Shown here piece after piece: positions 4,313 to 48,342 of a DNA stretch of 48,342 bases. Under the pieces are notes generated by a model. It had not been told where the DNA came from and did not search any database. It saw only the letters and a list, made by a program, of their open reading frames with translations. This DNA is from Candidatus Wildermuthbacteria bacterium RIFCSPHIGHO2_01_FULL_49_22b. GTDB taxonomy: Bacteria > Patescibacteriota > Minisyncoccia > Minisyncoccales > UBA10102. Both the position numbers and the translations under genes were made by a program. The stretch lies in the NCBI GenBank assembly GCA_001823165.1, contig MHTT01000008.1, forward strand, positions 1 to 48,342. Direction: 5' to 3'. Positions within the stretch are counted from its first letter, which is position 1, and each line of letters opens with the position of its first letter.

Positions 4313-4338
4313 CTATCCCCACCTAAATCGGATTTAGG
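4298..4338. repeat. REP-like palindrome doublet (family C) immediately upstream of the RayT-like gene
   Basis: ctaaatCCGatttag (4298-4312) and cctaaatCGGatttagg (4322-4338). Each is a 7-bp-arm perfect palindrome, and the two differ only in the central base (opposite orientations). The first copy contains the TAG stop and the last codons (LNPI*) of the giant protein. Confidence 0.85.
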
Positions 4339-4382
4339 ATATAGGGGAAACAGAGTCAGTAGATTAGAATATAATATAAAGC

Positions 4383-5099
4383 ATGCCAAGAACAAAACCA
4401 GAAAAGGGAAAAATCTACCATATTTTCAACCGTGGCGTAGAAAAGCGGAACATCTTTATATCCGAAGGAGATCGCTGGAGATTTTTGCAGGGGATGTATT
4501 TGTTTAATAATGAAGATTCCACCACAAATCTTCTCTATCGTCTTGAGCAAAGAAAGGGCAAGATGCATTTTGGCATCCTGCGAGATTATATGCAGCGAGA
4601 AGGCGTTAAGCGCAAGCCCTTGGTACGCATTATGGCAGATTGCCTTAAGCATAATCACTTTCATTTTAGCATTGAAGAAACTCAAGAAAACGGCATTTCC
4701 CGTTTTATGCAAAAGCTGGGTATTGGATATACAAAATATTTTAATAAAAAATATGAGCGCGTAGGACCGCTGTTTCAAGGAAAGTTTAAACTGGTAGAGA
4801 TACAAAGCGATGCGCAGCTTATGTATCTTATTGCCTATATTAATGCGATTAACCCCGGCCAAGAGTTAGAGCCAGAACTAAAATCAGTAGCGCAAGATCC
4901 AGAGCAAATCCTTGAGTTTATTCAACATTACCCATGGAGTACTCATTTGGAGTATTTGGGCAAAAGAGATTCTATTATTATAGATAAAGGTGTTGCGGGA
5001 GAATTATTTGGTACCCCAATTGCTTACCGAAAGTTTGTAGAAGATATTGTAAAAGGCAAAAAAAGTTTTGGTTTGTCAAAGAAAGATTTTCTTGAGTAG
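4383..5099 (+). CDS. IS200/IS605-like Y1 (HUH) transposase of the REP-associated RayT type (COG1943-like)
   Basis: YHIFNRGVEKRNIF N-terminus. HUH motif in CLKHNHFHFSI. GPLFQGKFK and the LIAYINAINP Tyr helix. HYPWSTHLEY tail. Flanked on both sides by the same palindrome doublets. Confidence 0.8.
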   Translation: MPRTKPEKGKIYHIFNRGVEKRNIFISEGDRWRFLQGMYLFNNEDSTTNLLYRLEQRKGKMHFGILRDYMQREGVKRKPLVRIMADCLKHNHFHFSIEETQENGISRFMQKLGIGYTKYFNKKYERVGPLFQGKFKLVEIQSDAQLMYLIAYINAINPGQELEPELKSVAQDPEQILEFIQHYPWSTHLEYLGKRDSIIIDKGVAGELFGTPIAYRKFVEDIVKGKKSFGLSKKDFLE

Positions 5100-5101: not shown

Positions 5102-5138
5102 CCTAAATCCGATTTAGTTTTACTAAATCGGATTTAGG
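5102..5138. repeat. REP-like palindrome doublet (family C) immediately downstream of the RayT-like gene
   Basis: cctaaatCCGatttag (5102-5117) and ctaaatCGGatttagg (5123-5138), in the same CCG-then-CGG order as the upstream doublet. Confidence 0.85.
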
Positions 5139-6046: not shown

Positions 6047-6952
6047 ATGGCTGACAGTATAACTAAAGAAAGTCCTCGATACCCAACACTACTCGGTGAA
6101 CTTAGGGACGCGCCAAAGCAGCTGTATTATAGGGGAAATTGGGACGGGATTTTTTCCGTCGAAGGCGGATCCGCCTCTGGCGGAGAAAAATGCCTGGCGG
6201 TTGTAGGCACGCGGAGAATGACCAGCTATGGAAAGCGCATGACCGAGCAGATCGTGGGTGAGGTTGCTGCGGCCGGGGTGACCGTTGTTTCTGGTTTTAT
6301 GTACGGTATTGATGCTGAAGCCCACAAAGCAGCTTTGAGAGCCGGCGGCAAAACCATTGCCGTAATGCCCTGCGGAATTGACGTTGTGCACCCAGAATAT
6401 CAGGCGGACTTATATCAAGAGATTTTAGATACGGGCGGCTTAGTGGTTTCAGAATACGAAGGCACGCATCCTGCTTTGTATTGGACGTTTCCACGCCGAA
6501 ATCGCATTGTAGCAGGCCTTTCAAAGGCAACGCTGGTAGTGGAGGCCGGTGAAGACAGCGGAGCATTGATTACCGCAGACCTTGCTAAAAAATACGGCAG
6601 AAAACTCTTTGCCGTGCCAAATCCTTTAACGAGCGCGGTTTCGCAAGGAGTAACGCGGTTGCTAAAAGAGGGTGCAACGATTGCAAGCAGCGCAGACGAT
6701 ATTTTGAAGTATTTTGGGTTTCGTACGCGGAGTAGGGTCAGACCCTACTCGCAAGTAGGGTCTGACCCTACTCCGCAGATTGCAGGCGAACTTGAGCAAA
6801 AGATTATGCAGGTGCTTTTCAAGGAATCAATGCAGATTGACGCGCTTGCCAGAAAACTTAAGATACCGGCAGCGCAGCTGGGAGCCGCAATTTCCATGTT
6901 GCAGTTGGAAGGATGCATAACAGAAGAACAGGGCAAATTATATGTTGTTTAA
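6047..6952 (+). CDS. dprA: DNA processing protein DprA
   Basis: LAVVGTRRMTSYGKRMT, VVSGFMYGIDAEAHKAAL, FPRRNRIVAGLS and a C-terminal winged-helix-like tail. The ORF is open from TTG 6032 but ATG 6047 is the more likely start. Confidence 0.9.
   Translation: MADSITKESPRYPTLLGELRDAPKQLYYRGNWDGIFSVEGGSASGGEKCLAVVGTRRMTSYGKRMTEQIVGEVAAAGVTVVSGFMYGIDAEAHKAALRAGGKTIAVMPCGIDVVHPEYQADLYQEILDTGGLVVSEYEGTHPALYWTFPRRNRIVAGLSKATLVVEAGEDSGALITADLAKKYGRKLFAVPNPLTSAVSQGVTRLLKEGATIASSADDILKYFGFRTRSRVRPYSQVGSDPTPQIAGELEQKIMQVLFKESMQIDALARKLKIPAAQLGAAISMLQLEGCITEEQGKLYVV
6727..6776. repeat. Family B palindromic doublet translated in frame within dprA
   Basis: gcggaGTAGGGTCaGACCCTACtcgcaaGTAGGGTCtGACCCTACtccgc. 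It is two 8-bp-arm hairpin units and the whole 50-mer is nearly self-complementary. It encodes [17 protein letters not shown] in the linker between the Rossmann and winged-helix domains. Confidence 0.85.
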
Positions 6953-8482: not shown

Positions 8483-8845
8483 ATGAGAGTACACAATATG
8501 ATAGGAGAGAGAGGGGAGGAGATTGCGCGCCAGTTTTTGGAGAACAAAGGATATACAATTATTGAGTGCAATTACAGGACAAAGAGAGCAGAAATTGATA
8601 TCATTGCAAAACATAAAAATAAACTAGTGTTTGTGGAGGTGCGAACAAAGCACCGCGAACAATACGGAACCCCAGAAGAAACTATTGATTATAAAAAACG
8701 CATGAGATTGAAAAAGAATGCCGCAGCTTATGTCCATCGAAAGAAATATTATGGGCCTTTTCGCATAGACGCCGTATGTCTGGTACTAGATGAGAACGCG
8801 GGGCTCCAGCGGATTAACCACTATGAAAACATTGTGGAAAACTAG
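8483..8845 (+). CDS. yraN: YraN-family (UPF0102) putative endonuclease
   Basis: GERGEEIARQFLENKGYTIIECNYRTKRAEIDIIAK...VFVEVRT...IDAV pattern. ATG 8498 is an alternative start. Confidence 0.85.
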   Translation: MRVHNMIGERGEEIARQFLENKGYTIIECNYRTKRAEIDIIAKHKNKLVFVEVRTKHREQYGTPEETIDYKKRMRLKKNAAAYVHRKKYYGPFRIDAVCLVLDENAGLQRINHYENIVEN

Positions 8846-8905
8846 GCGAGACCAAGGATTCCTTGGTCTCGCCTAAGAGCTAAAACTAAGGAGCTCATGG
8901 GAACA
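8762..8905 (+). repeat. 144-bp direct repeat, left copy (yraN 3' end, hairpin, and start codon of the next ORF)
   Basis: Identical to 10847-10990 except one mismatch (8790 t versus 10875 c) by my alignment. Contains the 13-bp-stem hairpin ggcgagaccaagg-att-ccttggtctcgcc (8845-8873). Confidence 0.9.
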
Positions 8906-10257: not shown

Positions 10258-10773
10258 ATGACTTCTCTCAAGAAGGGCGGGGAAAAGGAGAATAAAAATA
10301 ATCCCCAGTACCTGCCCACCGATTCAATGAAAAATAATATGAACAAGTTTATCTACAGGCCCATTAAGTTTAATCGGATAACCCAGATTTTCGGAGAGAA
10401 CAAAACAGATTACTCCAAACTTGGTATGCTCGGACATAATGGTCTTGATATGGCTACCTGGAATGGGACACCAATATATCATTCTGGTGACTATATGGGT
10501 TATATGAAGACAGAAATTGATGCAATGGGTGGCATAGGAGTAGATATCTATTCTAATACTCCCCAGATTGATGGAAAACGTATCAAATTGCGTTATTGGC
10601 ACTTAAAGCAAGTTGTAGGGTGGGATGGAAAAGAAGTGCGACCAGGACAACTTATAGGTTTTGCTGATAATACTGGATTTTCAACAGGAGACCATTTATA
10701 CTTTGATTTAAAATGTGTAGATGAGAATGACAAAACATCACGAACAATACGGAAGCCCGGAAGAAACCATTGA
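10258..10773 (+). CDS. M23/LytM-family peptidase-like protein (endolysin-like), 3' end running into the yraN-like fragment
   Basis: GHNGLDM (HxxxD) and NTGFSTGDHLYFDL. The usual HxH reads HLY, so it is possibly degenerate. The C-terminus is read out of the yraN-homologous DNA in another frame. Confidence 0.55.
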   Translation: MTSLKKGGEKENKNNPQYLPTDSMKNNMNKFIYRPIKFNRITQIFGENKTDYSKLGMLGHNGLDMATWNGTPIYHSGDYMGYMKTEIDAMGGIGVDIYSNTPQIDGKRIKLRYWHLKQVVGWDGKEVRPGQLIGFADNTGFSTGDHLYFDLKCVDENDKTSRTIRKPGRNH

Positions 10774-10930
10774 TTATGAAAAACGCATGAGACTGCAGCG
10801 AAACGCAAGAGCGTATATTCACCGAACAAAGTACCGCGGCCCATACCGCATAGACGCCGTATGTCTGGTACTAGACGAGAACGCGGGGCTCCAGCGGATT
10901 AACCACTATGAAAACATTGTGGAAAACTAG
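10722..10930 (+). pseudogene. Displaced, duplicated 3' fragment of a yraN-like gene
   Basis: It encodes ...HEQYGSPEETIDYEKRMRLQRNARAYIHRTKYRGPYRIDAVCLVLDENAGLQRINHYENIVEN, parallel to residues ~53-120 of the intact YraN. The N-terminal catalytic part is absent. Confidence 0.8.
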
Positions 10931-10990
10931 GCGAGACCAAGGATTCCTTGGTCTCGCCTAAGAGCTAAAACTAAGGAGCTCATGGGAACA
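10847..10990 (+). repeat. 144-bp direct repeat, right copy
   Basis: See 8762-8905. The hairpin copy is at 10930-10958. Confidence 0.9.
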
Positions 10991-15562: not shown

Positions 15563-15586
15563 ATGTGTGAAACCTGGTTTCACACA
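15563..15586. repeat. Family D palindrome, copy 1, 11 nt after the stop of the TPR protein
   Basis: atgtgtgaaacctggtttcacaca is identical to 42247-42270. The arms tgtgtgaaacc/ggtttcacaca are perfect reverse complements. Confidence 0.9.
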
Positions 15587-15763: not shown

Positions 15764-18700
15764 ATGCCTGTTCCGCAGCCTTCCTTTAAAAACTTTGGCA
15801 AATCCGGCGTTCATTTTCCCTTGCCCTATCTTTTGCAGGTACAGCAGGACAGCTGGAGCCAATTTTGGCGCGGGGATTTTAAAGAACTGCTGCAGGAAAT
15901 CTCGCCCATATACGACCACACGAAAAAAGAGTTTGAGCTGTGGTTTGTGGACTTTAAACTCGGCGAGCCCAACTACGCCACGGACCTGGAGGCCAAAGAA
16001 AACGATGATTCTTTTGAGGCGCCCCTGCGCGTGAAGGTGCGTTTGGTGAACCTCAAAACCAAAGAGCAAAAAGAGCAGGAGATTTTCCTTACTGATTTCC
16101 CCTTGATGACCGAGCGGGGCACGTTCATTATCAACGGGGTGGAGCGAGTCGCCATTTCCCAGCTCATTCGTTCTCCGGGGGCCTTCTTTACCGGACAAGA
16201 AGCCAAGGTAACAAGAAAGCTGTTCGGAGCAAAAATCATTCCCAACCGCGGGGCCTGGCTGGAATTTGAAACGGAAAACTCGGGATTCATCGGTGTTCGC
16301 ATTGACCGAAAAAGAAAGGCGCCCGCCACCACGCTCCTGAAGGCCTTTGGCCTGGAGACTGAGGAAGCCATACAGAGCGCCTTTTCTGACGTGGACAAAG
16401 GCAGCGTGAGTTACATCGCGGAAACCCTGAAAAAAGATACCGCCAAAGGGCAGGGAGAGGCCTTAATGGAGATTTACCGACGGTTGCGCCCCGGCGACTA
16501 CGTCACTCCCGACACCGCAAAAGAACTGATAGGGAACATGTTCTTTAATTTTGAACGATATGACCTTTCCCGGGTGGGGCGATGGAAAACGCTGCAGCGC
16601 CTGCCCGCGTTAAAAAATCCAAAATCCAAAACAGAAGAGGAAGTTTCTCTTAAAGACAGAGTGCTGAAATTAGAAGACATCATTGAGGTTTTGCGGGAAA
16701 TCATCCGTCTCAACAATGCGCCGGGGGCCGTGCCCGACCAGATTGACCACCTGGGAAATCGAAGGGTGAGAACGTTCGCCGAGTTCTTGCAGAACCGCCT
16801 GCGCGTCGGGTTCATGAGAATGGAACGCATCGTGAAAGACAGGATGTCCACCCTTGACGCAAGCATGTTGACGCCTGCCCAGCTGGTGAACCCCAGGCCG
16901 GTCATGGCCATGGTCAAGGAGTTCTTTACGTCATCCCAGATAACGCAGTTCATGGACAATGAAAACCCGCTGGCCGAACTGGAGCACAAAAGAAGGGTGT
17001 CTGCCACGGGACCCGGGGGATTGACCCGAGAGCGGGCCGGCTTTGAGGTGCGGGACGTGCAGCCCTCCCACTACGGAAGGATTTGCCCCATTCAGACCCC
17101 CGAGGGCCCCAACATCGGACTCGTTGGGCATATGGCAAGCTACGCACGCATTAACTCGTACGGATTCCTGGAAACTCCGTACTTTGAGGTGCGCAAAGAG
17201 AAGGTGACCGAAAGGATTAAGTATCTGAACGCGTTTGAAGAAGAGCAGGAGGTTATAGCGCACGCGGGAATTCCCCTGGATGCAAAGGGCGCCATTATCC
17301 CCGACAAGGTGGAAGCCAGGGTTAGGGGGGAAGCGGGAATGGCCGCAAAGAAGGACGTCACGTACATTGACGTGGGCCCCGAGCAGTCCATTTCCGTTGC
17401 CACGGCCCTGATTCCCTTTTTGAGAAACGACGACGCAAACCGCGCACTCATGGGTTCTAACATGCAGCGCCAGGCCGTTCCCTTGCTGCGGGCCGAAAGT
17501 CCTTTGGTGGGAACTGGCCTTGAGGAAAAGGTGGCAAAGGATTCCGGTTTGGCCGTGGTGGCGCAGGAAGACGGGGTTGTAAAGGAAGTTGACGCAAGAC
17601 ATATTACGGTTAAGCCCGCAACCGAGAAATCGCATACCTATGAGCTCAAAAACTTTGTAAGGACAAACCAGTATACTTCCTTTCATCAGCGTCCCATCGT
17701 GGATGTGGGCCAAAAGATAAAAAAAGGACAGGTGATAGCAGACGGGGGCGCCATTGACCAGGGACGCCTGGCTTTGGGAACCAACCTGCTGGTTGCCTTC
17801 ATTTCCTGGCGGGGAGGCAACTACGAGGACGCCATTATCTTGTCTGAACGCCTGGTAAAGGATGACCGGTACACCTCAATCCATATTGAGGATTTTGTGG
17901 CCGACATCAGGGAAACCAAGCTGGGCCCAGAACTGACCACATCAGACATTCCCAACGTAGGGGAGGAGAAATTAAAGGATTTGGACGAAGAGGGAGTGGT
18001 GCGCGCGGGGGCTGAAGTGGGGCCCAACGACATTCTGGTTGGTAAGATTTCTCCCAAAGGGGAAGCCGATCTCACGTCGGAAGAACGGCTCTTGCGAGCC
18101 ATATTCGGGGAAAAGGCGCGGGACGTGAAAGACAGCTCTTTGCTGATGCCCCACGGAAAGCGTGGGCGGGTGGTTTCCGTAAAAGTGTTTGAACGCGTCC
18201 AGGGCCATAAGCTAGAGCCCGGGGTGATAAAGCGCATCCATGTTGAGGTGGCAGAGCTTAGAAAAGTGCAGCCGGGAGACAAGCTGGCAGGAAGACACGG
18301 CAACAAAGGGGTCATTTCCTTTGTACTCCCCGAAGAGGATATGCCCTTTATGGAAGACGGAACCCCCGTGGATATTGTTTTAAACCCGTTGGGGGTTGCT
18401 TCCCGAATGAACATCGGCCAAATCCTGGAAACGCATCTTGGCTGGGCGGCAAAGAAGCAAGGGTACTTTGCTTTGACCCCGGGCCTGGCGGGAGCAAATG
18501 AAAAAGACATCAAAGCGGAACTCAAGGCAGCCGGGCTCCCGGAAGACGGTAAGGTGACCCTGTTTGACGGCAGGGACGGAACGTCCTTCCCCCAGAAAAT
18601 CACGGTGGGCATGATATATATGATGAAGCTCATTCACATGGTGGAAGACAAGATTCACATGCGCTCCATTGGCCCCTATTCTTTGATTACCCAGCAGCCC

Positions 18701-18997
18701 CTGGGAGGGAAAGCGCAGTTTGGAGGACAGCGGTTCGGGGAAATGGAGGTGTGGGCGCTGGAAGGATACGGGGCCTCTCACATCCTCCAGGAAATGCTTA
18801 CCATCAAGTCAGACGATGTTCCGGGAAGGGCAGCCACGTATGAAAGCATCCTGCGGGGACAGCCCATTCAAACCCCCAACCTGCCTGCCTCCTTTTCGCT
18901 TTTACTTGCTGAATTGAGGTCGCTTGGCCTTAACATTGAAGTAAAGGAGACGCAACGGGCGGAAAGAAAACAAGAAGACGAAAGAGAAAAATCCTAA
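15764..18997 (+). CDS. rpoB: DNA-directed RNA polymerase subunit beta
   Basis: Full-length conserved RpoB (FMDNENPLAELEHKRRVSATGPGGL, NMQRQAVPL, GRHGNKGVIS, GGQRFGEMEVWALEGYGA). The ORF is open from TTG 15746 and ATG 15764 is preferred. Confidence 0.97.
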   Translation: MPVPQPSFKNFGKSGVHFPLPYLLQVQQDSWSQFWRGDFKELLQEISPIYDHTKKEFELWFVDFKLGEPNYATDLEAKENDDSFEAPLRVKVRLVNLKTKEQKEQEIFLTDFPLMTERGTFIINGVERVAISQLIRSPGAFFTGQEAKVTRKLFGAKIIPNRGAWLEFETENSGFIGVRIDRKRKAPATTLLKAFGLETEEAIQSAFSDVDKGSVSYIAETLKKDTAKGQGEALMEIYRRLRPGDYVTPDTAKELIGNMFFNFERYDLSRVGRWKTLQRLPALKNPKSKTEEEVSLKDRVLKLEDIIEVLREIIRLNNAPGAVPDQIDHLGNRRVRTFAEFLQNRLRVGFMRMERIVKDRMSTLDASMLTPAQLVNPRPVMAMVKEFFTSSQITQFMDNENPLAELEHKRRVSATGPGGLTRERAGFEVRDVQPSHYGRICPIQTPEGPNIGLVGHMASYARINSYGFLETPYFEVRKEKVTERIKYLNAFEEEQEVIAHAGIPLDAKGAIIPDKVEARVRGEAGMAAKKDVTYIDVGPEQSISVATALIPFLRNDDANRALMGSNMQRQAVPLLRAESPLVGTGLEEKVAKDSGLAVVAQEDGVVKEVDARHITVKPATEKSHTYELKNFVRTNQYTSFHQRPIVDVGQKIKKGQVIADGGAIDQGRLALGTNLLVAFISWRGGNYEDAIILSERLVKDDRYTSIHIEDFVADIRETKLGPELTTSDIPNVGEEKLKDLDEEGVVRAGAEVGPNDILVGKISPKGEADLTSEERLLRAIFGEKARDVKDSSLLMPHGKRGRVVSVKVFERVQGHKLEPGVIKRIHVEVAELRKVQPGDKLAGRHGNKGVISFVLPEEDMPFMEDGTPVDIVLNPLGVASRMNIGQILETHLGWAAKKQGYFALTPGLAGANEKDIKAELKAAGLPEDGKVTLFDGRDGTSFPQKITVGMIYMMKLIHMVEDKIHMRSIGPYSLITQQPLGGKAQFGGQRFGEMEVWALEGYGASHILQEMLTIKSDDVPGRAATYESILRGQPIQTPNLPASFSLLLAELRSLGLNIEVKETQRAERKQEDEREKS

Positions 18998-19085
18998 GAA
19001 ATCCTAAATCCGATTTAGAGAAATCCTAGATTTAGTAAGAAATCCTAAATCCGATTTAGTAAGAAATCCTAAATCCGATTTAGAA
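18988..19085 (+). repeat. Tandem array of family C REP-like palindromes in the rpoB-rpoC spacer
   Basis: cctaaatccgatttag at 19003-19018, 19044-19059 and 19068-19083, with a degenerate copy at 19024-19035, at ~24-nt period (aagaaatcctaaatccgatttagt). All are in the CCG orientation. The rpoB TAA stop (18995-18997) lies in a partial unit aaatcctaag. Confidence 0.85.
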
Positions 19086-19125
19086 ATTTTAGAAATTAGA
19101 ATTTAGAGTTTTAGTTTTAGCATAC

Positions 19126-22100
19126 ATGAGGGTAACCGATTTAGAATCCATTCGAATAAAGCTCGCCTCCCCGGACAACGTTTTGGCGTGGTCTCACGGG
19201 GAGGTTACGAAGCCCGAAACCATCAACTACCGCACCCAGCGCGCGGAAAAGGAAGGTTTGTTTGACGAGCGCATCTTTGGTCCGGAAAAGGACTATGAGT
19301 GCTATTGCGGCAAGTACCGCAAGATACGCTACAAGGGCGTGGTGTGCGACCGGTGCCAAGTGGAGGTGACCAAATCCTCGGTGCGCCGCGAGCGCATGGG
19401 CCACATCAAGCTGGCCTCGCCCTGCTCGCACATCTGGTTTCTGCGGGGGGTGCCCTCGCGCATGGGCCTTGTTTTGGATATTCCTTCTGGCGCCTTGGAG
19501 CGCGTCATCTACTTTGCCTCGTATATCATCACCAAGGTGAACGAGGAGGCAAAAGCCAAGGCCGCAGACGAGATTGAGGCGGAATTCAAGCAGAAATTCA
19601 AGAACAAGGGAGAAGAAGAAAAGCAGCAGCTCAAGGGAGCGCGCGACCGGGCCAGAGAAGAGCTCAAGCTCCTCCAGCCCTTGAAAATCCTTTCTGAAGC
19701 AGAGTATCAGAACCTTTCTTTAAAGTACGGCCAGGCCTTTGAGGCGGGAACCGGAGCTGGAACCCTAAGAAAAATATTTCAAGAAGTGGATTTAAAGAAG
19801 CTTCTCAATCAGGTAAAAAAAGACCTGGAAAAGGCGAGTTTGGTGACGAAACGAAAACTCTTGGTCAGGATGCGACTGCTGCAGGGAATGCTGGAGTCCT
19901 CTATTCGCCCCGAATGGATGTTTTTCACCCACTTGCCTGTTCTTCCTCCCGACCTGCGTCCCATGGTGCAGCTGGACGGGGGAAGGTACGCTTCCTCTGA
20001 CTTAAACGACCTGTACCGCAGGGTGATTAACCGCAACAACCGCTTAAAGTATCTGCTGGAAATTGAGGCCCCGGACGTGATTGTGCGCAACGAGAAGCGC
20101 ATGCTGCAGGAAGCCGTGGACGCCCTGATTGACAACTCTATGAGAAAAGGACAACTCACGTCAGCTACCACGGGAGGAAGGCGCCTGTTAAAGTCCCTAG
20201 CGGACATGCTCAAGGGAAAGCAGGGACGGTTCCGCCAGAACCTGCTGGGAAAGCGTGTGGACTACTCGGGGAGGTCGGTCATTGTGGTGGGTCCCACCAT
20301 GAGTTTGAAGAACGTGGGACTGCCAAAGCGCATGGCCCTGGAGCTGTTTAAGCCCTTTGTGATTCAAAAAATCCTTGAACGGGAGTTTGCCTTCAATGTC
20401 CGGGGAGCAAATCGGCTTATTGAACAGGAAACCAACGATGTATGGGCGATTTTGGAAGAGGTTGTCGCAGAAAGAATGGTGCTCTTGAACCGCGCGCCGA
20501 CTCTTCACCGCTTGGGCATCCAGGCCTTTTACCCGCAGCTCGTGGAAGGGGAGGCCATCCGCCTGCATCCTCTGGTGTGCTCCGCCTTCAACGCGGACTT
20601 TGACGGAGACCAGATGGCCGTCCATGTGCCTCTGTCCAAAGAGGCCCAGGAAGAGGCCAGAAACCTGATGCTGTCGGCAAACAATCTGTTAAAGCCCGCC
20701 ACGGGAATCCCGGTGGCCGGTCCCCGCCAGGATATGGTGCTCGGCTGCTATTACTTGACCGGCGCAGACAAAAAACCGCAGGAACAAAAGAAGAGTTTTT
20801 CGTCTCCGCAGGAGGTCCTGCTTGCCATGGAAGCCGGGGCTGTCGGGTTGCGGGACGCCATACGGGTGCGTATGCCAAAGACCTGGGGAGGGGACGGTAT
20901 TTCTCTTGCGGAAACCACGCCAGGCCGCCTCATTTTCAACGAGTCCTTGCCTTCCGGGTTCCCGTTTGTCAACGAACAGATTACCGCAAAAAGAATGGAA
21001 CGCCTGGTGGCGGATATTATTAAGCATTATCCTGCCGAGGAGGCCCCCGGCATGTTAGACAAAATCAAGGAGCTGGGATTTGAATATGCGACCAAGTCCG
21101 GAATCACTTGGGGCATGGATGATCTGACGGTCCCGGAAGAAAAGAAAGAGCTGCTGGGGCAAGCTGCGCAAGAGATTGAAGTCATTGATTCCCATTTTGC
21201 AAGGGGATTGCTTTCCAAGGAGGAGAGGTCGGCTAAGGTCATTGAAATCTGGCAGCGGGTGAAGTCCGCGGTGGAAAAACTCGTGCCGAAATCCCTGCCT
21301 GAAGGCGGTTCGGTCTTTTCCATTATTGACTCCGGGGCAAGGGGTTCTTGGTCCCAGCCCGTGCAGATGGCGGGCATGAAGGGCTTGGTGATTAACCCGG
21401 CAGGCCGCATTATTGAGCTGCCCGTCAAGAGTTCTTTCAAGGAAGGGTTTGACGTACTGGAGTACTTCATTTCCACGCACGGGGCAAGAAAGGGAACCGC
21501 GGACACCGCCTTGAGAACGTCCACGGCAGGGTATCTTACCCGCCGTTTGATTGACGTTGCCCATGACGTGCTGGTAACCTTGCATGACTGCAAAGACACG
21601 GCGGGCATCGTCATTACCAAGGCCGTGGCCCAAGAGCTGGGCCAGAACATTGCTTTAAAGCTTGCTGGCAGGATTTCCCTGCAGGACCTGAAAGGAATTG
21701 TGAAGAAAGGAGGGTACATTGATTGGGACAAGGCCCAGGCAATTGGAGAAGACGAGAAGGTAAAGGAGGTGTGGGTACGCTCGCCTTTGTCGTGCCGCGC
21801 GGTGCGGGGAGTGTGCCAGCTGTGCTACGGATGGGATATGGGCAGGAACAGGGAGATTGAGCTGGGAGCGGCTGTTGGCATCGTGGCGGCCCAATCCATT
21901 GGAGAGCCGGGAACGCAGCTTACCATGAGAACATTCCACACGGGAGGGGTTGCTGGAGGAGGCGACATTACCCAGGGACTTCCCCGCGTAGAGGAAATCT
22001 TTGAAGGAAGGGTTCCGAGCGGCAAGGCCGTCTTATCAGAGCTTGCAGGGAAAGTGGTTGAGATAACTCCAGAGGGCGCGGTGAAGATACAAGCAACAAT

Positions 22101-22716
22101 TGACAATTTACAATTGACAATTGACAAGAAGAATAGTCGTCAAAAGTCAAAAGTCAAGAGTCAAGAGTCAATCGTGGAATACCAGATTCCCGCAAAGCGG
22201 GCTTTGTGGGTAAAGCTTGGAGACCAGGTCGTGAAAGGGCAGCAACTGTGCGAAGGGCACCCGGACCTTCAAGAGATATTTTCCCTCACCGGAAAGGACG
22301 GCGCGGCGTCTTATATCGTCAGAGAAGTGCAAAGTATTTACACTTCCCAGGGCGCTTCCATCCACGACAAGCATATTGAGACCATAGCGCGCCAGATGTT
22401 TTCCCGCATCAGAATCAAGGATGCGGGAGACGCCGCCTTCACGGAAGGGGAAGTGGTAGAAAGGGCCGTATTTCTGGAAGAAAACGCCAAGGTCAAGAAG
22501 CTTTCAAAGAGAGGAGCCGTGGGCTCCCAGCTTCTCTTGGGCATTTCCAAAATTGCCCTCACCACGGACAGCTTTCTGTCCTCGGCCTCGTTCCAGGAAA
22601 CCTCCCGCGTTTTGATTAAGGCCTCTCTGGAAGGCAAGGAAGACCGCCTGCGGGGTCTGAAAGAAAACGTGATTATCGGGAAGCTTATTCCTGCGGGAAC
22701 CGGGTTCAAGAAATAA
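19126..22716 (+). CDS. rpoC: DNA-directed RNA polymerase subunit beta-prime
   Basis: Zn-finger CYCGKYRKIRYKGVVCDRCQVEV, catalytic NADFDGDQMAVHVPLS, trigger-loop region GEPGTQLTMRTFHTGG and C-terminal ASFQETSRVL. Confidence 0.97.
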   Translation: MRVTDLESIRIKLASPDNVLAWSHGEVTKPETINYRTQRAEKEGLFDERIFGPEKDYECYCGKYRKIRYKGVVCDRCQVEVTKSSVRRERMGHIKLASPCSHIWFLRGVPSRMGLVLDIPSGALERVIYFASYIITKVNEEAKAKAADEIEAEFKQKFKNKGEEEKQQLKGARDRAREELKLLQPLKILSEAEYQNLSLKYGQAFEAGTGAGTLRKIFQEVDLKKLLNQVKKDLEKASLVTKRKLLVRMRLLQGMLESSIRPEWMFFTHLPVLPPDLRPMVQLDGGRYASSDLNDLYRRVINRNNRLKYLLEIEAPDVIVRNEKRMLQEAVDALIDNSMRKGQLTSATTGGRRLLKSLADMLKGKQGRFRQNLLGKRVDYSGRSVIVVGPTMSLKNVGLPKRMALELFKPFVIQKILEREFAFNVRGANRLIEQETNDVWAILEEVVAERMVLLNRAPTLHRLGIQAFYPQLVEGEAIRLHPLVCSAFNADFDGDQMAVHVPLSKEAQEEARNLMLSANNLLKPATGIPVAGPRQDMVLGCYYLTGADKKPQEQKKSFSSPQEVLLAMEAGAVGLRDAIRVRMPKTWGGDGISLAETTPGRLIFNESLPSGFPFVNEQITAKRMERLVADIIKHYPAEEAPGMLDKIKELGFEYATKSGITWGMDDLTVPEEKKELLGQAAQEIEVIDSHFARGLLSKEERSAKVIEIWQRVKSAVEKLVPKSLPEGGSVFSIIDSGARGSWSQPVQMAGMKGLVINPAGRIIELPVKSSFKEGFDVLEYFISTHGARKGTADTALRTSTAGYLTRRLIDVAHDVLVTLHDCKDTAGIVITKAVAQELGQNIALKLAGRISLQDLKGIVKKGGYIDWDKAQAIGEDEKVKEVWVRSPLSCRAVRGVCQLCYGWDMGRNREIELGAAVGIVAAQSIGEPGTQLTMRTFHTGGVAGGGDITQGLPRVEEIFEGRVPSGKAVLSELAGKVVEITPEGAVKIQATIDNLQLTIDKKNSRQKSKVKSQESIVEYQIPAKRALWVKLGDQVVKGQQLCEGHPDLQEIFSLTGKDGAASYIVREVQSIYTSQGASIHDKHIETIARQMFSRIRIKDAGDAAFTEGEVVERAVFLEENAKVKKLSKRGAVGSQLLLGISKIALTTDSFLSSASFQETSRVLIKASLEGKEDRLRGLKENVIIGKLIPAGTGFKK
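22097..22172 (+). repeat. Family A heptamer-array hairpin element translated within rpoC
   Basis: caa TTGACAA TTTACAA TTGACAA TTGACAA gaagaat agtcgtc AAAAGTC AAAAGTC AAGAGTC AAGAGTC aat, encoding TIDNLQLTIDKKNSRQKSKVKSQES. Homologous to 36963-37036 and to the reverse complement of 34589-34662. Confidence 0.85.
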
Positions 22717-26169: not shown

Positions 26170-26292
26170 AGATTTTACTGCGTAAAAGAAATTACAAATT
26201 CAAAGCACCAAATTCCAAACGCTTTTGGTTTGTGATTTGTGGTTTTGGTCATTGTAATTTGTTTGTAGTTTGGAATTTGTAATTTGTGATTT
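26170..26292 (-). repeat. Family F intercistronic element (ssb-rpsR spacer)
   Basis: The reverse complement is colinear with the groES-groEL spacer. It has a CA-rich tract (aaatcacaaa...), then gcgtttggaatttggtgct(t/g)tgaatttgtaatttcttttacg(c/a)agtaaaa directly before the ATG. Inverted termini are aaattacaaattc.../...tttggaatttgtaattt. Confidence 0.8.
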
Positions 26293-34040: not shown

Positions 34041-34382
34041 TTAGATCTTGCCTTTGCTAAACAGGGAAAGCACGATAAGCACTGCTGCGACCGCAAACCC
34101 CGTCAGCGCAAGAGACGTGAGGTTGGGAATGGTGAGCTCGGGAAAGAATATGTCCAGCGCCCATACGGCGGAAAAAACCAGGGCCAAGAGAACCGCGAGC
34201 TTCACAATCAAGGAAAAAAGATTCAGTAAGGGGCGCGCCACAGCCAGAATGATACCAAGAATGAGCCCCGCAATCAAGAAGTTTTTCAGCTCCCCCGTAA
34301 AATCCACTCCCGGCACGAACTCTGTTGCAATCCAAAGGCCGGCCAATCCCGCGAGCAGAGAGAGAACAATGGTATGAAGCAT
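34041..34382 (-). CDS. Four-TM membrane protein, DUF360/phage-holin-4-like family
   Basis: 113 aa and entirely hydrophobic helices. Its start overlaps the uvrC stop (TAATG), implying translational coupling. Confidence 0.6.
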   Translation of the reverse strand: MLHTIVLSLLAGLAGLWIATEFVPGVDFTGELKNFLIAGLILGIILAVARPLLNLFSLIVKLAVLLALVFSAVWALDIFFPELTIPNLTSLALTGFAVAAVLIVLSLFSKGKI

Positions 34383-35788
34383 TAAGATAGCGTACCCCGC
34401 TTTTGAGATTTGGTCAATCCGAGGACTTGTTCCCTGAGCTTTCGATGGTAAGAAATGGCAAAGCGGTGCGCTTCGTCCCTGATATGGAGAAACAGATTCT
34501 CAAGGGGCCTCGGCAGGTCTCTCAAAAGCACTGGTCTTGATTTGCCGGGAAAGAACAGCTCGTTTTGTTTTTTTGCCAGTGCCACCATGATTGACTTTTG
34601 ACCTTTGACTTTTGACGATTGACTTTTTTTGCTGTCAATTGTCAATTGTGAATTGCCAATTGTTAGCTCCCGCAGCGCAGAGAGCGCTGCGGTGAGCTGC
34701 CCCTTTCCTCCGTCAATGACCATGAGCTGGGGATAGGGCCATTCGGGGTGCCGGAGACGCCTTGAGAGAAGTTCTTCCATCATAGCATAATCATTTGATT
34801 TACCAGATATGCGAATCTTGTACTTTCTATAGGATTCCTTGAGAGGGGCCCCTTTAAGAAAGGTAACCTGGGAACCTGTTGCTTGTTTCCCTTGGATGTT
34901 GGAGATGTCATAGGCCTCCATGCGGGAGATTCGTTTTCTTGTTTCAAAGAGCTTCTGGAGTTCCTTTTCTATGAGGTTCCAGTTGGTGGAGGGCGCGGTC
35001 TCGCGGGAAAGGAGCCGCGCATGAGAAACAATGCGCTCTAAAGCGAGAAATTGATCTCTCAATCCTGCTGCTTTTTCAAAACCCTGATTCTTTGCGGCCT
35101 CGTTCATTTCTTTTTTCAGTTGTCTGAAAACCGAGGTTCTCTTTCCTTTGAGGACGGCGGCAAGTTTGCGCAGGTTCTTTTTGTATGTTTTCTCATCTGG
35201 GTCGGGTCCCGGGCAGAGATTGAGCTGGCACCAGGAGCAGGGAAGGGAGCCGTGCTTTTTTGCCGTGTAATAGGGGAATACCCTCCGAAGCAATCTCAAT
35301 ACCCGCCTGATTGCCTTTCCTTCCGTGAAAGGGCCAATATAGTTTGTATCTTGTATTTTGTATCTTGTATTTTGTATTTTTTTCTCCTTTTTCATACCAG
35401 ATACCAGATACGAGCTACAAGATACAAGGCGGGGCTGATGCGTCAAAAAGATTCTCGGAAGTTTATCTTTTGTTATTCCAACAAAAAAATACCCCTTGTC
35501 GTCTTTCCACATGACGTTGTATTTGGGCTGCAGCTTCTTTATGAGCTGCGACTCCAGCAACAAGGCATCAATTTCAGATTGAGTTTCAAGATATCCTACC
35601 CTGGTTACTTGGGATGTGAAAAGATTGTCCCGGTAGCTGGGCTGGGCAAAGTGGATTCTGACCCGGTCTTTGATATTCCCCGCCTTTCCTATATACAGCA
35701 CCGCTTTGGGAGAAGCCAAAGCATACACCCCGGGTGCTTTTGGAAGGGTTGAGAGTTTTGATTTGGGAACATACCGAAACTTTTCCAT
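34382..35788 (-). CDS. uvrC: Excinuclease ABC subunit C, short form (no C-terminal HhH2 domain), carrying two in-frame repeat insertions
   Basis: GIY-YIG (GVYALASPKAVLYIGKAGNIKDRV), UVR domain (EMNEAAKNQGFEKAAGLRDQFLALERI) and endonuclease V-like domain ending IRDEAHRFAISYHRKLR. ATG 35788 fits the canonical N-terminus, but the frame stays open to TTG 36091. Confidence 0.9.
   Translation of the reverse strand: MEKFRYVPKSKLSTLPKAPGVYALASPKAVLYIGKAGNIKDRVRIHFAQPSYRDNLFTSQVTRVGYLETQSEIDALLLESQLIKKLQPKYNVMWKDDKGYFFVGITKDKLPRIFLTHQPRLVSCSSYLVSGMKKEKKIQNTRYKIQDTNYIGPFTEGKAIRRVLRLLRRVFPYYTAKKHGSLPCSWCQLNLCPGPDPDEKTYKKNLRKLAAVLKGKRTSVFRQLKKEMNEAAKNQGFEKAAGLRDQFLALERIVSHARLLSRETAPSTNWNLIEKELQKLFETRKRISRMEAYDISNIQGKQATGSQVTFLKGAPLKESYRKYKIRISGKSNDYAMMEELLSRRLRHPEWPYPQLMVIDGGKGQLTAALSALRELTIGNSQLTIDSKKSQSSKVKGQKSIMVALAKKQNELFFPGKSRPVLLRDLPRPLENLFLHIRDEAHRFAISYHRKLREQVLGLTKSQKRGTLS
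34589..34662 (-). repeat. Family A heptamer-array hairpin element translated within uvrC
   Basis: The coding strand reads caa TTGGCAA TTCACAA TTGACAA TTGACAG caaaaaa agtcaat cGTCAAA aGTCAAA gGTCAAA aGTCAAT cat, encoding TIGNSQLTIDSKKSQSSKVKGQKS. Confidence 0.85.
35344..35428. repeat. Family G heptamer-array hairpin element translated within uvrC
   Basis: The plus strand reads TTGTATC TTGTATT TTGTATC TTGTATT TTGTATT tttttctcctttttc ATACCAG ATACCAG ATACGAG CTACAAG ATACAAG. ttgtat and atacaa are reverse complements. It encodes the extra segment ...LVSCSSYLVSGMKKEKKIQNTRYKIQDTNY.... Confidence 0.8.
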
Positions 35789-36091
35789 GAGTATAGTATA
35801 TCTGCTTTGCGGAGTTGCGTCTAAAAAAAAGTGTCCTGAAGCGCTTGGCTCAGGACACAGGAACAGCAGGACACAGAAACAAGGATGGTATGGCCCTAGT
35901 TTATTATGATTGGCAGAGCAGATGCTCCTTGCTGCCGTAAGGCCAAGGAAGCATCCGGCAAGGCCCAGAACCAGGGTTGAGACAACGATGGAGGTCTGGC
36001 TGGGTCCTTGGGGAAGAAGGGATACCAGGATGCCAATTCCTGCACCCAGCAACCCTCCGATTATGATAATGATGCCGAATATCTTATCCAA
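35789..36091 (-). CDS. SD-led two-TM ORF segment in frame with uvrC. It is either a separate small membrane protein whose stop is missing or frameshifted, or an N-terminal membrane anchor of UvrC.
   Basis: TTG start at 36091 preceded by gaAGGAGGaatc (SD 5 nt upstream). Translation is MDKIFGIIIIIGGLLGAGIGILVSLLPQGPSQTSIVVSTLVLGLAGCFLGLTAARS, then low-quality Cys-rich sequence across the terminator hairpin. TAA TAA and TAG occur in the other two frames right after TM2. Confidence 0.35.
35823..35858 (-). terminator. Rho-independent terminator-like hairpin on the minus strand, between the upstream 2-TM ORF segment and the uvrC ATG
   Basis: The minus strand reads GTGTCCTGA-gccaagcgct-TCAGGACAC followed by TTTTTTTT. 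Confidence 0.55.
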
Positions 36092-36229: not shown

Positions 36230-39157
36230 ATGGCACAGGATTTCATTAAAATCAGGGGAGCACGGGTTCACAACCTCAAGAACATTGACGTTGATATCCC
36301 CAAGGGCAAGCTTGTGGTGATTACCGGGCTTTCCGGGTCAGGGAAAAGCTCTCTTGCCTTTGATACTCTGTATGCTGAAGGACAGAGAAGGTACGTTGAG
36401 AGTTTGTCCGCATACGCGCGGCAATTCCTGGGCGTCATGCAAAAGCCCGATGTGGATTCCATTGAGGGCATTAGTCCTGCCATTGCCATTGACCAGAGAA
36501 AGGGAGCTCACAACCCTCGTTCTACCGTTGGGACCATTACGGAGATATATGACTATCTCCGTCTTTTGTTTGCAAGGATAGGAGTTCCGCACTGTCCCAA
36601 CTGCGGCAGGGAAGTCAAGCGCCAGTCGGTTTCCTCCATTGCAGACCAGGTGCAGAAACTTCCCGCCAAAGACGAGATTGCCATTCTTGGTCCTGTAATC
36701 AGGGAGAAAAAAGGGGAGCACCGGGGAGTTTTAGAAGAAATCCAGCGTTCCGGGTTTGTGAGGGCTCGCATTGACGGCATTGTGGAGCGCGTTGAAGAGG
36801 CCCTGGAAAAGGAGTTGGACCGCAAAAAGAAGCATTCCATTGAAGTGCTCGTGGACCGGCTAACCATAGACAAGGATCTGGACCGCCCCCGCCTCATCGA
36901 TTCTTTAGAGACCGCCTTAAAGCTTGGGAAAGGGCTGGTGATTGTGCGGGCACAGTCACCAACAATTGACAATTCACAATTAACAATTAGCAAGAAGAAT
37001 CGTCGTCAAAAGTCAACAGTCAATAGTCAAAAGTCAGGAGAAGACCTGGTCTTCAGCGAGCGCTTTGCCTGCGAGCAATGCAGTATTTCCCTGCCAGAGA
37101 TTGAGCCGAGAATGTTTTCTTTCAACTCTCCCTTTGGGGCGTGTCCTGCGTGCCAGGGATTAGGAGAAAAGCTGGAGGTTGATCCCAAACTGGTGATTCC
37201 CAACCCCCGGCTTTCCCTTGCCGAGGGCGCCATTTTCCCCTGGGCGCACGCTTCCCATAAGATAGGACGCCAGGGATTCTTTTGGTGGAAACTGGAAGAC
37301 CTGGCGAAAGAAAGGAAGTTTTCTTTGAATACTCCAGTAGAGGAGCTTTCTCCTAAAGTCATTAGCCTGGTCTTGCAAGGAGATAGAGGGTTTGCCGCCC
37401 GCAGAAGCGGGCGAGCCTCACCCGCCTCTGAAGAGGCGAGGTGGGAAGGAGTGATTCCCTGGCTGGAACGAAGATACCATGAGACCGACTCTGAATACGC
37501 CAGGGAAGAGATTGAGCAGTATATGATAGAGCGCTTGTGCGAAATGTGCCAGGGAAAGAGGTTGAAACCCGAGGTGGTGGCGGTAACCGTGGGGGCAAAG
37601 TCCATTCACGGGGTCGTAAACCTGCAGCTCAACCGCGTCAAAGAGTTTTTTGGCAAACTCTTCTTGAAAGAGCATGAGAAAAAGATAGCAAGCCCCATTG
37701 TAAAAGAGATTGTGAATCGCCTTCAGTTTTTAATTGATGTGGGCTTGGAGTATCTCACCCTGGCGAGAAAAGCCGCGACCCTGTCAGGAGGAGAAGAACA
37801 GAGAATACGGCTCGCCACCCAGATTGGCTCAAAGCTTACTGGGGTCTTGTACATATTGGACGAGCCCTCTGTCGGTTTGCATGCCAGAGACCAGCATCGC
37901 CTCATTGCGACCTTGCAGCAATTGCGCTCTTTGGGCAATACCATTGTAGTAGTAGAGCATGACCCCCAAACCATACGGTCAGCTGACTGGGTGGTGGATA
38001 TTGGCCCTGGAGCAGGAAAGCACGGGGGCCGTGTCACTTTTACCGGAACGCCAAAACAGCTGCTCAAGTCGCGCACACTTACCGGAGATTACCTAGCGGG
38101 GCGCAGAACTGTTCAGATAAGCAAAGTAGGGTCAGACCCTACTCGGGTGAGTAGGGTCAGACCCTACTCACAGCTGATTGTCCAGGGGGCAACGCACAAC
38201 AACTTAAAGAACATTGACGTTGCAATACCGCTGGAAAGGATGGTGTGCGTGACCGGGGTTTCAGGGTCTGGCAAAAGTTCTCTGGTCAGCGATATTGTGG
38301 CAAAAGCCCTGCTGCAGAAGTTCTACAGGGCAAAGGAAGAACCGGGAGAGCATAAGGCAATTTTAGGCACGGAGCATCTTAACAAGGTGGCGCTGGTGGA
38401 CCAGTCGCCCATTGGCAGAACTCCGCGTTCCAACCCCGCAACCTACACAGGGTCCTTTTCTGTCATACGGGATTTGTTTGCTTTATGCAAAGAGGCCAGG
38501 GTGCGGGGCTACAAGCCGGGAAGATTTTCTTTTAATGTAAAGGGAGGAAGATGCGAGTCCTGCGAGGGCCAGGGGCTAAAAAAGATTGAGATGTACTTTT
38601 TACCGGACGTGTATGTGGAGTGCGAGGAATGCCAGGGACAGCGATACATGAAAGAGGTCCTGGAGGTGGAATACCGAGGCAAAAACATTGCCCAGGTTCT
38701 GGCAATGACCGTGGAGGAAGCCCTGGCGTTTTTCAGAAACATTCCCGCCCTGACAGCGAAGTTGAAGACCTTAAACGACGTGGGACTCTCGTATGTGGAG
38801 CTGGGACAGCCCGCCCCCTCCCTTTCTGGGGGAGAGGCCCAGCGAGTAAAGCTGGCAACCGAGCTTGCAAAGAAAGCAACAGGAAAGACCCTGTACATTC
38901 TAGACGAGCCAACCACGGGTCTTCATTTTGACGACGTGAAAAAACTGCTTCAGGTGTTGGGGGAACTGACGGACAAGGGAAACACGGTATTGATTATTGA
39001 GCACAATCTTGATGTGGTGCGCAATTCGGACTGGATTATTGACCTGGGACCAGAGGGAGGAGAAAAAGGGGGGAAATTGGTCGCAGAGGGAACCCCAAGA
39101 GATGTTGCCAAAATAAAAAAGAGCTATACGGGGCAGTACTTGCGTAAGTTCAGCTGA
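36230..39157 (+). CDS. uvrA: Excinuclease ABC subunit A, carrying two in-frame repeat insertions
   Basis: Two ABC modules ([51 protein letters not shown]), zinc modules (CPNCG, CEQC...[12 protein letters not shown]...CEECQGQRY), 975 aa. Confidence 0.97.
36963..37036 (+). repeat. Family A heptamer-array hairpin element translated within uvrA
   Basis: caa TTGACAA TTCACAA TTAACAA TTAGCAA gaagaat cgtcgtc AAAAGTC AACAGTC AATAGTC AAAAGTC a, encoding [25 protein letters not shown]. Confidence 0.85.
38125..38168. repeat. Family B palindromic doublet translated within uvrA
   Basis: aGTAGGGTCaGACCCTACtcgggtgaGTAGGGTCaGACCCTACt, encoding [17 protein letters not shown]. These are the same two peptide readings as in dprA but in swapped order. 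Confidence 0.85.
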
Positions 39158-39522: not shown

Positions 39523-39816
39523 ATGCAGATAAAGCCATTGGCAGATCACGTTTTGATTGAGCCCTTAGAGGAGGAGCAAAAGACCAAGACCGGCATTCTT
39601 TTGCCGGAAACAGCGGAACAAGAAAGGTCAGAACAGGGGACCGTTGTCGCCGTGGGTCCCGGCAAGAAAGGCAAAGACGGCAAGGTGATTCCTTTGGAGG
39701 TAAAGGCGGGGGACCTTGTACTGTTTGCCAAGTACGGTCCAAGCGAGGTGAAGGTGGACGGCAAAGAATACCTTATTGCAGAAGAAAAAGACATCCTCGC
39801 GATTTTAGAGCGCTAA
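39523..39816 (+). CDS. groES: Co-chaperonin GroES
   Basis: MQIKPLADHVLIEPLEEEQKTKTGILLPE...GDLVLFAKYG...ILAILE. Confidence 0.96.
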   Translation: MQIKPLADHVLIEPLEEEQKTKTGILLPETAEQERSEQGTVVAVGPGKKGKDGKVIPLEVKAGDLVLFAKYGPSEVKVDGKEYLIAEEKDILAILER

Positions 39817-41586
<1,770 letters not shown>

Positions 41587-42246: not shown

Positions 42247-42270
42247 ATGTGTGAAACCTGGTTTCACACA
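42247..42270. repeat. Family D palindrome, copy 2, between the lemA stop and the htpX start
   Basis: atgtgtgaaacctggtttcacaca, identical to 15563-15586. Confidence 0.9.
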
Positions 42271-42281
42271 TCCTTGAGCTT

Positions 42282-43187: not shown

Positions 43188-43271
43188 ATTTTCAATTATC
43201 AATTTCCAATTTTTAATCAAACCCCAATGACCAAATTTTTAAACAGTCTGATAATTGAAGCATTGAAAATT
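43185..43271. repeat. AT-rich TIR-bounded miniature element (family E), copy 2
   Basis: It starts at the htpX TAA (cccctaaattttcaat...) and ends ...cattgaaaatt. It shares blocks with 5967-6040. Confidence 0.7.
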
Positions 43272-43303
43272 CACTGAAGATTGAGAATTGCAAATTGAGA
43301 ATT

Positions 43304-47999: not shown

Positions 48000-48342
48000 A
48001 ATAGGATGATACGAGTTCTCCGCCTCGGGGCTTCGCCCCTCGGCGGGCAAATCGGCGAGAATTTTCCACGACTTTTTGGGTTCAAAGCAAATCGCTTGCA
48101 AGCGCAAAACGCGGTTCGCCGCGCGAAGCGCCGAGGCAACAAACTCACAACATACAATTTGGCTCCGAACGCTGAACGAAATCCGAACATTTTTTAGCGA
48201 AAATCCGAACGCTGAATTTTGACGCTCCGCCCCGCCGCCGCTCGCTACCACTCGCCGCACTACAGAAAAATACTCTTTGCTCTTTTCGTTTTGCGCGCGC
48301 CCAATTTTTTCTTCTAAAAGGAAAAGAATGTTTTGCTTGGCT

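Follow-up and report, generated by a model that had tools for sequence, protein, structure and literature searches.

Family A, a heptamer-ladder hairpin repeat read in frame within rpoC, uvrA and uvrC of a Candidatus Wildermuthbacteria genome

Palindromic and heptanucleotide repeats in bacterial genes

Rickettsia palindromic elements (RPEs) are short palindromes that lie in frame in unrelated housekeeping genes (Ogata et al., 2000, 2002, as recounted in PMC10969869 and PMC1166351), and a 2024 review speculates on RPE-like events outside Rickettsia (PMC10969869). The subject here is a repeat, designated family A, in a 48,342-nt stretch of DNA (the window; coordinates are positions within it) from a Candidatus Wildermuthbacteria bacterium of the Rifle aquifer, a member of the Candidate Phyla Radiation (CPR). 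Family A is a hairpin-forming ladder of 7-nt units that is read in frame within rpoC, uvrA and uvrC; it is probably a non-autonomous palindromic repeat, analogous to the RPEs, that selection has filtered to permissive protein loops.

Like family A, RPEs are multi-copy within a genome, add a peptide at positions compatible with the fold of the host protein, have no associated transposase, and show no obvious target duplication. Family A differs in length (~78 nt of heptamers, against an RPE consensus of ~100-150 bp), in the use of 7-nt tandem arms in place of unique sequence, and in its CPR host, Candidatus Wildermuthbacteria rather than Rickettsia; because host, length, and sequence type differ, it is regarded as an analogue of the RPEs and not as a member. 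Unlike the RPEs, it also occupies loops that are hit by different families in sister lineages. A search of the literature for in-frame palindromes or heptamer hairpins in CPR or Parcubacteria genomes found nothing specific.

Repetitive extragenic palindromes (REPs) and REP doublets forming hairpins (REPINs), which are mobilized by Y1/HUH enzymes known as REP-associated tyrosine transposases (RAYTs), resemble family A in being hairpin-forming, non-autonomous, and without target-site duplication (PMC3116915, PMC2817692, PMC3733652). REPs, however, are GC-rich sequences of 20-40 bp with a GTAG or CGTC tag and are essentially extragenic, whereas family A is an AT-rich heptamer ladder in genes; it is not a short, tagged, GC-rich palindrome and does not flank a RAYT as inverted doublets. 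Among heptanucleotide tandem repeat systems is the short tandemly repeated repetitive (STRR) sequence family of cyanobacteria. The TAACTGA repeats of Beggiatoaceae, Cyanobacteria, and Bacteroidetes (PMC4679880) share with family A the 7-nt period, the occasional occurrence in open reading frames (ORFs), and an orientation restricted by stop codons; those in ORFs encode 7-residue periodic peptides, but the arrays are direct and mostly intergenic or ORF-peripheral (PMC4679880). Family A likewise has head-to-tail 7-nt arrays of at least three copies; unlike the TAACTGA repeats, it has two complementary arrays paired around a conserved loop inside essential genes. Miniature transposable elements with inverted repeats (MITEs) derived from insertion sequences (ISs), such as QMITE1 of Coxiella (PMC5896051) and the Correia and ERIC elements (PMC10969869), are, like family A, small inverted repeats that can be kept in ORFs as in-frame insertions. 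The ends of family A are also inverted (ATTGAC...GTCAAT), but there is no target-site duplication and the whole element is an imperfect palindrome of simple repeats; no parent IS with ends matching family A was found in the 48-kb window.

The family A element in rpoC

The rpoC copy (22094-22172, + strand) encodes RpoC residues about 990-1016, ATIDNLQLTIDKKNSRQKSKVKSQESI. It opens with AACAA, followed by a left arm of four units (TTGACAA, TTTACAA, TTGACAA, TTGACAA; 22100-22127, +), an A-rich, non-repetitive spacer of 11 nt that forms the hairpin loop (GAAGAATAGTC; 22128-22138, +), and a right arm (GTCAAAA, GTCAAAA, GTCAAGA, GTCAAGA, GTCAAT; 22139-22172, +) whose GTCAA words pair with the TTGAC words of the left arm. 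The G>T change in unit 2 of the left arm removes an in-frame TGA. Tandem Repeats Finder reports the two arms as period-7 arrays of 4.6 copies with 92% matches (22096-22127) and 4.7 copies with 96% matches (22139-22171). The window has the pattern of left arm, gap, and right arm at three places, with seven overlapping matches, and 100 dinucleotide-preserving shuffles yielded no match; by one scoring rule, the window holds seven period-7 arrays, against 0-1 for each other period from 4 to 12.

As RNA the rpoC copy folds at -18.4 kcal/mol (z = -3.8), a stability equaled by none of 200 shuffles; as DNA it folds at -10 kcal/mol (z = -3.1). The predicted fold is a ladder of 5-bp TTGAC/GTCAA helices with A/A internal loops between them. 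A preliminary description of this DNA, made from the sequence alone, had proposed this ladder of helices and A/A mismatches, which the fold bears out; it had also counted four units in each arm, which agrees with the left arm, but the right arm holds five GTCAA words.

The general plan of family A is ~78 nt of AT-rich sequence arranged as (TTGACAA)4, an A-rich loop, and (GTCAAAA)4-5. An alignment of eight copies has the same architecture of four left units, a loop, and four to five right units; the paired TTGAC and GTCAA words are nearly invariant among the copies, and the pairing register shifts with the presence of four or five right units. In each of the window's three copies the word CGTC stands where spacer and right arm meet, which may be incidental. 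An Rfam scan of 22000-22300 gave no credible match, the top score being 16.9 bits for a miRNA model whose gathering score is 70.

Insertion site in the β' jaw

The host gene rpoC (19126-22716, +) encodes the β' subunit of RNA polymerase (1196 aa); the product is annotated as β' and contains all five Rpb1 Pfam domains. The element is in frame within this ORF, where its peptide is TIDNLQLTIDKKNSRQKSKVKSQES, and the predicted tryptic peptides that span its junctions are IQATIDNLQLTIDK and SQESIVEYQIPAK. Eleven independent contigs, drawn from several JGI and ENA samples, encode the identical RpoC protein, which excludes the assembly artefact that had been named as a possible refutation of the insertion.

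Comparison with solved RNA polymerases places the site directly past the trigger-loop/GLPRV motif, downstream of GLPRVEEIFEGR, in a region that we take to be the β' jaw (roughly E. coli residues 1149-1190). Among 111 homologs, the distance between conserved anchors around this loop ranges from 64 to 96 residues, a spread of 32 residues. In an AlphaFold2 model of the C-terminal 271 residues of RpoC, the insert sits at the tip of a β-hairpin between two β-strands with predicted local distance difference test (pLDDT) scores of 85-95; the insert itself is partly helical with a pLDDT of about 56. The element thus maps to a loop of the jaw, after the trigger loop, that is hypervariable and, according to the model, on the protein surface, much as the preliminary description had anticipated in naming the variable part downstream of GLPRVEEIFEGR.

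The closest RpoC orthologs (85-79% identity) are without the element, in protein as well as DNA comparisons; they have KIQGKDPEAKAKKEEVVEY where the window has KIQATIDNLQLTIDKKNSRQKSKVKSQESIVEY, so that about 13 ancestral loop residues have given way to the element. When the 30-aa insert peptide was run with phmmer against 1.84 billion cluster representatives, no hit came back, an uninformative result since the query is short and of low complexity.

Copies in uvrA and uvrC

Family A is present twice more in the window, which gives three copies of the palindrome in 48 kb. The copy in uvrA (ORF 36230-39157) lies at 36960-37036 (+) and is 90% identical to the rpoC copy over 77 nt; the copy in uvrC (ORF 34382-36091) lies at 34585-34664 (-), which is the coding strand, and encodes the peptide TIGNSQLTIDSKKSQSSKVKGQKS. 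All three copies are on the coding strand of their hosts and are read in the same element-relative frame, so that, as with an RPE, a single element frame is open in unrelated genes; the uvrA and uvrC copies with their related peptides had been recognized in the preliminary description. The spacer of the uvrA copy, GAAGAATCGTC, is nearly identical to that of rpoC, and the longer non-repetitive sequence common to the two copies is GAAGAATAGTCGTC versus GAAGAATCGTCGTC. Because this spacer is not repetitive, its presence in both genes shows that sequence was copied between loci of one genome.

The nearest UvrA (81-82% identity) and UvrC (about 68%) orthologs are without the element. By comparison with solved UvrA structures, the UvrA insert falls in a gap between blocks aligned to Geobacillus UvrA residues 196-254 and 261-327, an inter-block position that, like the β' jaw loop, is compatible with the fold; the loops that bear the element in UvrA and UvrC are likewise hypervariable and are presumably exposed on the protein surface. 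The uvrC copy, like that of rpoC, folds significantly better than shuffled sequence (z = -3.0 as RNA), whereas pairing is lost in the uvrA copy (RNA z = 0.0, DNA z = -1.0). Loss of the uvrA hairpin fits decay after insertion, not a structure maintained in place. The rpoC copy is also nearer the consensus than the uvrA copy and appears to be the fresher of the two, which suggests that full-length elements were still being copied recently.

A second heptamer hairpin lies elsewhere in uvrC (35343-35427, -) and consists of (TTGTATC/TTGTATT)x5, a loop, and (ATACCAG)x4, with an RNA folding energy of -31.8 kcal/mol; its in-frame reading gives LVSGMKKEKKIQNTRYKIQDT (KIQNTRYKI), and the element recurs at the same site in a UvrC ortholog of 58% identity (P0265). 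The longest uvrC ORF (569 aa) begins with a hydrophobic N-terminal extension of ~100 aa that is absent from orthologs, and translation probably begins instead at the Met of MEKFRYVPK, near 35788.

Stop codons and the open frame

The numbers 7 and 3 share no factor, and so TGA recurs once per 21 nt in every frame of a perfect TTGACAA array. On the opposite strand the right arm (TTTTGAC) likewise puts TGA in every frame, and an idealized perfect element is closed in six of six frames. Each of the three copies in the window is open in just one of six frames, that of its host gene, as expected from the earlier proposal that the element survives only where it is in frame; the single open frame results from unit 2, which is TTTACAA (Leu) or TTCACAA (Ser). 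All copies of the window have one or other of these variants as unit 2, and so does a related copy (L128) in uvrA of a distant organism; a copy in PheS (L143) has another stop-removing change.

Metagenome copies with no ORF of 150 aa or more across them were classed as intergenic. These related copies include some with in-frame stops, and some with perfect TTGACAA units and strong hairpins; z is -3 to -10 in most, and in genic copies it ranges from -5.5 to +0.3. The contrast between intergenic copies with perfect units and genic copies open in a single frame is the signature of a nucleotide-level repeat that selection has filtered for an open frame.

Recurrence at the same sites in relatives

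A sister genome was compared by way of contig NODE_195, merged from L009 and L146, whose RpoC is 84% identical to that of the window. The RpoC loop that bears family A in the window has another hairpin there, CCTGAAACATGAAACC...GGTTTCAGGTTCC (DNA z = -4.6), and a sequence related to this hairpin forms a 25-aa insert in a loop of its RpoB; at the site of that insert, rpoB of the window has an in-frame (AAAATCC)x2.6 array (16611-16635) encoding NPKSKTE. Many of the insertions and deletions that distinguish the window from the sister genome form hairpins or are 7-nt periodic, as in comF, dprA, rpoD, and a third site in uvrA. The insert-bearing loops are hotspots whose repeat families differ between lineages.

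At the UvrA site, family A itself recurs in two genomes (P0151/L128 and P0163/L129) whose UvrA is ~71% identical to that of the window. These two are each other's nearest relatives, and the six nearest neighbors of the window UvrA are without the element.

Other in-frame inserts that are lineage-specific when set against the sister genome (5724-5846, 6146-6193, and 37400-37432) comprise GC-rich hairpins in comF (z = -3.8), dprA (z = -4.4), and uvrA (z = -2.9) and, also in comF, a heptamer array read as QLSMVNHQW.

Origin of family A

The shared spacer, the restriction of each copy to the one open frame, and the absence of the element from the nearest orthologs are best accounted for if family A is a non-autonomous palindromic repeat, a probable counterpart of the RPEs. 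Single-stranded DNA or RNA of the element would fold into the ladder hairpin, and new copies would land in many places, most of them to be removed by purifying selection. Those that survive would add a multiple of 3 nt, have the one orientation and frame without stops, and lie where a loop can take up ~25 extra hydrophilic residues; only the TT[T/C]ACAA variant of unit 2 would be coding-competent, because a perfect element has TGA in every frame. The element would then be transcribed and translated as part of β', UvrA, and UvrC, and with subsequent drift the hairpin would decay and the arrays would shrink by slippage or deletion. Most likely it brings no specific benefit to the host and serves as raw material for loops rich in Lys, Ser, and Gln. 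Candidate copying routes are a hairpin-specific single-strand Y1/HUH transposase, for which a RAYT-like gene at 4383-5099 could be considered, and, with no transposase involved, template switching or gene conversion from one heptamer array to another. The structure of the element would suit a mechanism that acts on single strands, is directed by hairpins, and leaves no duplication, as it would template switching between arrays.

Several observations weigh against this reading. The rpoC element is not a clean addition, given that ancestral loop residues are replaced. At UvrA site 1, a relative whose UvrA is ~72% identical (L147/P0192) has, at identical codon positions, a perfect (AGTCAAA)x4 array, read as SQKSKVKSQK, which is the right arm alone, and the sister genome (P0122 uvrA) has a degenerate right-arm array, SQKSKAKNQND. 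Since the right arm stands alone in relatives, a single clean insertion is too simple an account of the uvrA copy, which may have been built up on an array already in place and not have arrived complete. Two histories fit this site: most lineages may have lost the left arm of an old hairpin, an arm prone to stops, or the direct array may be the older part, a landing pad to which spacer and left arm were added. A target-site duplication and a common target motif were sought at the three copies and neither was seen; family A copies in the window number only three, all of them genic; and the palindrome on either side of the RAYT-like gene is another one, CTAAATCCGATTTAG, with nothing to tie the gene to family A. 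The insertion of a miniature element proposed in the preliminary description is upheld by the absence of the segment from orthologs (among them the nearest RpoC, at 85%, in the alignment that the description had called for), by the 90% identity of copies, by the single open frame of each copy, and by the variable loop in which the rpoC copy lies, but not as a clean insertion at either rpoC or uvrA.

It is unlikely that each locus arose independently, by slippage arrays in unconstrained loops that turned palindromic locally with no movement of sequence between genes. Heptanucleotide repeats are reported to be the most abundant long simple repeats in most prokaryotic genomes, with slippage as the proposed cause (PMC4679880, citing Mrazek, 2007), and both the solitary right-arm arrays at the UvrA site of relatives and the many different heptamer-derived peptides in the same loops of orthologs are in keeping with such an origin; but the rpoC and uvrA copies have in common the spacer GAAGAAT[A/C]GTCGTC and both boundaries, rpoC of the window and uvrA of L128 have the same unit-2 variant, and local fold-back of (GTCAAAA)n would yield TTTTGAC units rather than TTGACAA. 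There is a similarly small chance that family A is a nucleic-acid signal of benefit to the host, either an mRNA hairpin acting in pausing, processing, or stability, or tandem TTGACA -35 boxes that form an internal promoter or protein-binding array. The significant folding of the rpoC and uvrC copies, and the presence of hairpins of different sequence at the same gene positions in different lineages, are what such a signal would predict; the loss of pairing in uvrA (z about 0), the closest orthologs that do without the element, the lack of an Rfam match, and the single open frame, which a structural signal does not need, speak against it. The promoter version, on which the preliminary description had speculated, draws on two weak matches that overlap the element where 0.2 are expected; an internal promoter was rejected, since both match the consensus at only 9 of 12 positions with the poor -10 hexamers AAGAAT or TATTCT.

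A peptide module selected at the protein level, such as a Lys-rich loop with which DNA and RNA enzymes contact nucleic acid, is very unlikely, although each of the three hosts works on DNA, the peptide, besides being hydrophilic, is basic, and the native jaw loops of relatives are also rich in Lys. The 7-nt period is incompatible with a codon-level repeat, copies exist with in-frame stops and no long ORF spanning them, related copies lie in what appear by eye to be PheS, IleRS, TrpF, and MurF, and AlphaFold2 confidence is low within the insert. Removal of the segment before or during translation, by intron-like excision or ribosomal bypass, can draw on the intervening sequences that CPR genomes carry, among them a group I intron that splits a tRNA gene in this window; the element, however, adds a multiple of 3 nt and is free of stops in the host frame alone, neither of which excision would call for, and Rfam gives no match to an intron there. 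With the identical gene on 11 contigs, this explanation and that of an assembly artefact are together extremely improbable.

If family A is indeed a mobile nucleotide-level repeat, coding palindromes that were once treated as a peculiarity of Rickettsia would also occur in an unrelated reduced-genome CPR lineage, there with paired 7-nt arrays, and inside RNA polymerase's catalytic subunit and a pair of excision-repair proteins. A concrete nucleotide-level origin would then be at hand for some lineage-specific loops of the core proteins of CPR bacteria, in a repeat whose built-in stop codons restrict it to one frame, and low-complexity inserts like TIDNxQLTI, KSQIPNP, and KIQNTKY in CPR proteins would be better read as repeat-derived than as functional motifs. 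The different hairpins at identical sites, together with the single arm at the UvrA site, pose a testable question about the mechanism of insertion.

Heptamer hairpins beyond the source lineage

A first scan of genome contigs with a permissive pattern gave at least 118 loci, most of which are simple tandem arrays, for example (CAATTGT)n in Cyanobacteria and Bacteroidales; a stricter pattern applied to metagenomes gave 14 loci and missed the copies of the window itself, and a scan of viral contigs for the pattern gave no match. Other CPR lineages, Bacteroides, Parabacteroides, and one Gemmataceae genome likewise have hairpins with TTGACAA arms. The TTGACAA unit common to these lineages is partly a selection effect, because the search pattern fixed CAATT/GTCAA words. 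The Bacteroides family has its own conserved loop, ATGCAG..GCGCAGC; since the loops differ, the hairpins of other lineages are considered separate families rather than one transferred element.

By eye, some of the long ORFs that bear hairpins are presumably those of IleRS, PheS, TrpF, MurF, a GH10-GH43 junction, and a DnaE2-like polymerase. A broader proposal is that heptamer-ladder hairpins are widespread, coding-competent repeats that cross phyla, repeatedly colonize the same small set of permissive loops in universal proteins (RpoB/C, UvrA/C, aminoacyl-tRNA synthetases, MurF, TrpF, and the DnaE2-like polymerase), and are a main source of lineage-specific insertions in CPR proteins, spreading perhaps by a hairpin- or array-directed route that involves a domesticated RAYT-like Y1 enzyme or array-seeded gene conversion with the direct array as landing pad; this is a possibility, but a doubtful one.

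Loci that are read through include L079 (Peribacteria, IleRS-like), L018, L080, and L082 (Bacteroides, Parabacteroides), and L010 (Gemmataceae). The IleRS-like ORF of Peribacteria contains three copies of a GGLNRRLT motif.

The RAYT-like gene and other repeats of the window

The window encodes a RAYT-like transposase of the Y1/IS200 family (4383-5099, +), whose PF01797 (Y1_Tnp) score of 25.4 bits exceeds the Pfam cut-off of 23 and which contains an HUH-like HNHFHF motif and Tyr motifs. The ORF is syntenic in the sister genome; a sequence search of solved structures (PDB) with it gave no match. Inverted doublets, CTAAATCCGATTTAG / CTAAATCGGATTTAG, flank the gene at 4297-4340 and 5103-5138. A RAYT flanked by inverted repeat doublets is the classical RAYT-REPIN layout (PMC3116915), which the window matches with CTAAATCCGATTTAG, not with family A. 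The spacer between rpoB and rpoC (18983-19107) contains three more CTAAATCCGATTTAG palindromes and heptamer-like arrays.

Doublets of a REP-like GTAG...CTAC palindrome, AGTAGGGTCAGACCCTACT, lie at 6724-6776 and 38118-38170; the first is at the end of dprA and the second is in frame inside uvrA, in a linker that is hypervariable in orthologs. Two inverted hairpin elements of 116 nt (26173-26288 and 39831-39946), which are 86% complementary and made of TTTGTAA/TTTGGAA-type heptamers, fill the rpsR-ssb and groES-groEL intergenic spacers; a long minus-strand ORF at 39813-40499, antisense to groEL, is probably spurious. Another heptamer-ladder hairpin (43187-43305; AATTTTC/AATTATC ... GAGAATT, -24.5 kcal/mol) lies between genes for an M48 peptidase and a Zn-ribbon protein. 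The tRNA gene split by the group I intron is at about 47715-48005 (+), with the intron (RF00028, 92.5 bits) at 47740-47950; ARAGORN does not call this gene.

Identical near-perfect palindromes of 33 nt, TAGGCGAGACCAAGGATTCCTTGGTCTCGCCTA (97% complementary), are found at 8843-8875 and 10928-10960, inside a 261-nt direct repeat (8645-8905 and 10730-10990; 87% identity) that corresponds to the duplicated 3' end of a UPF0102 gene. A palindrome of 23-24 nt, TGTGTGAAACCTGGTTTCACACA, is present at both 15563-15586 and 42248-42271, directly downstream of a TPR gene and of lemA, respectively, and could represent either a terminator-like hairpin common to both places or one more small family of repeats.

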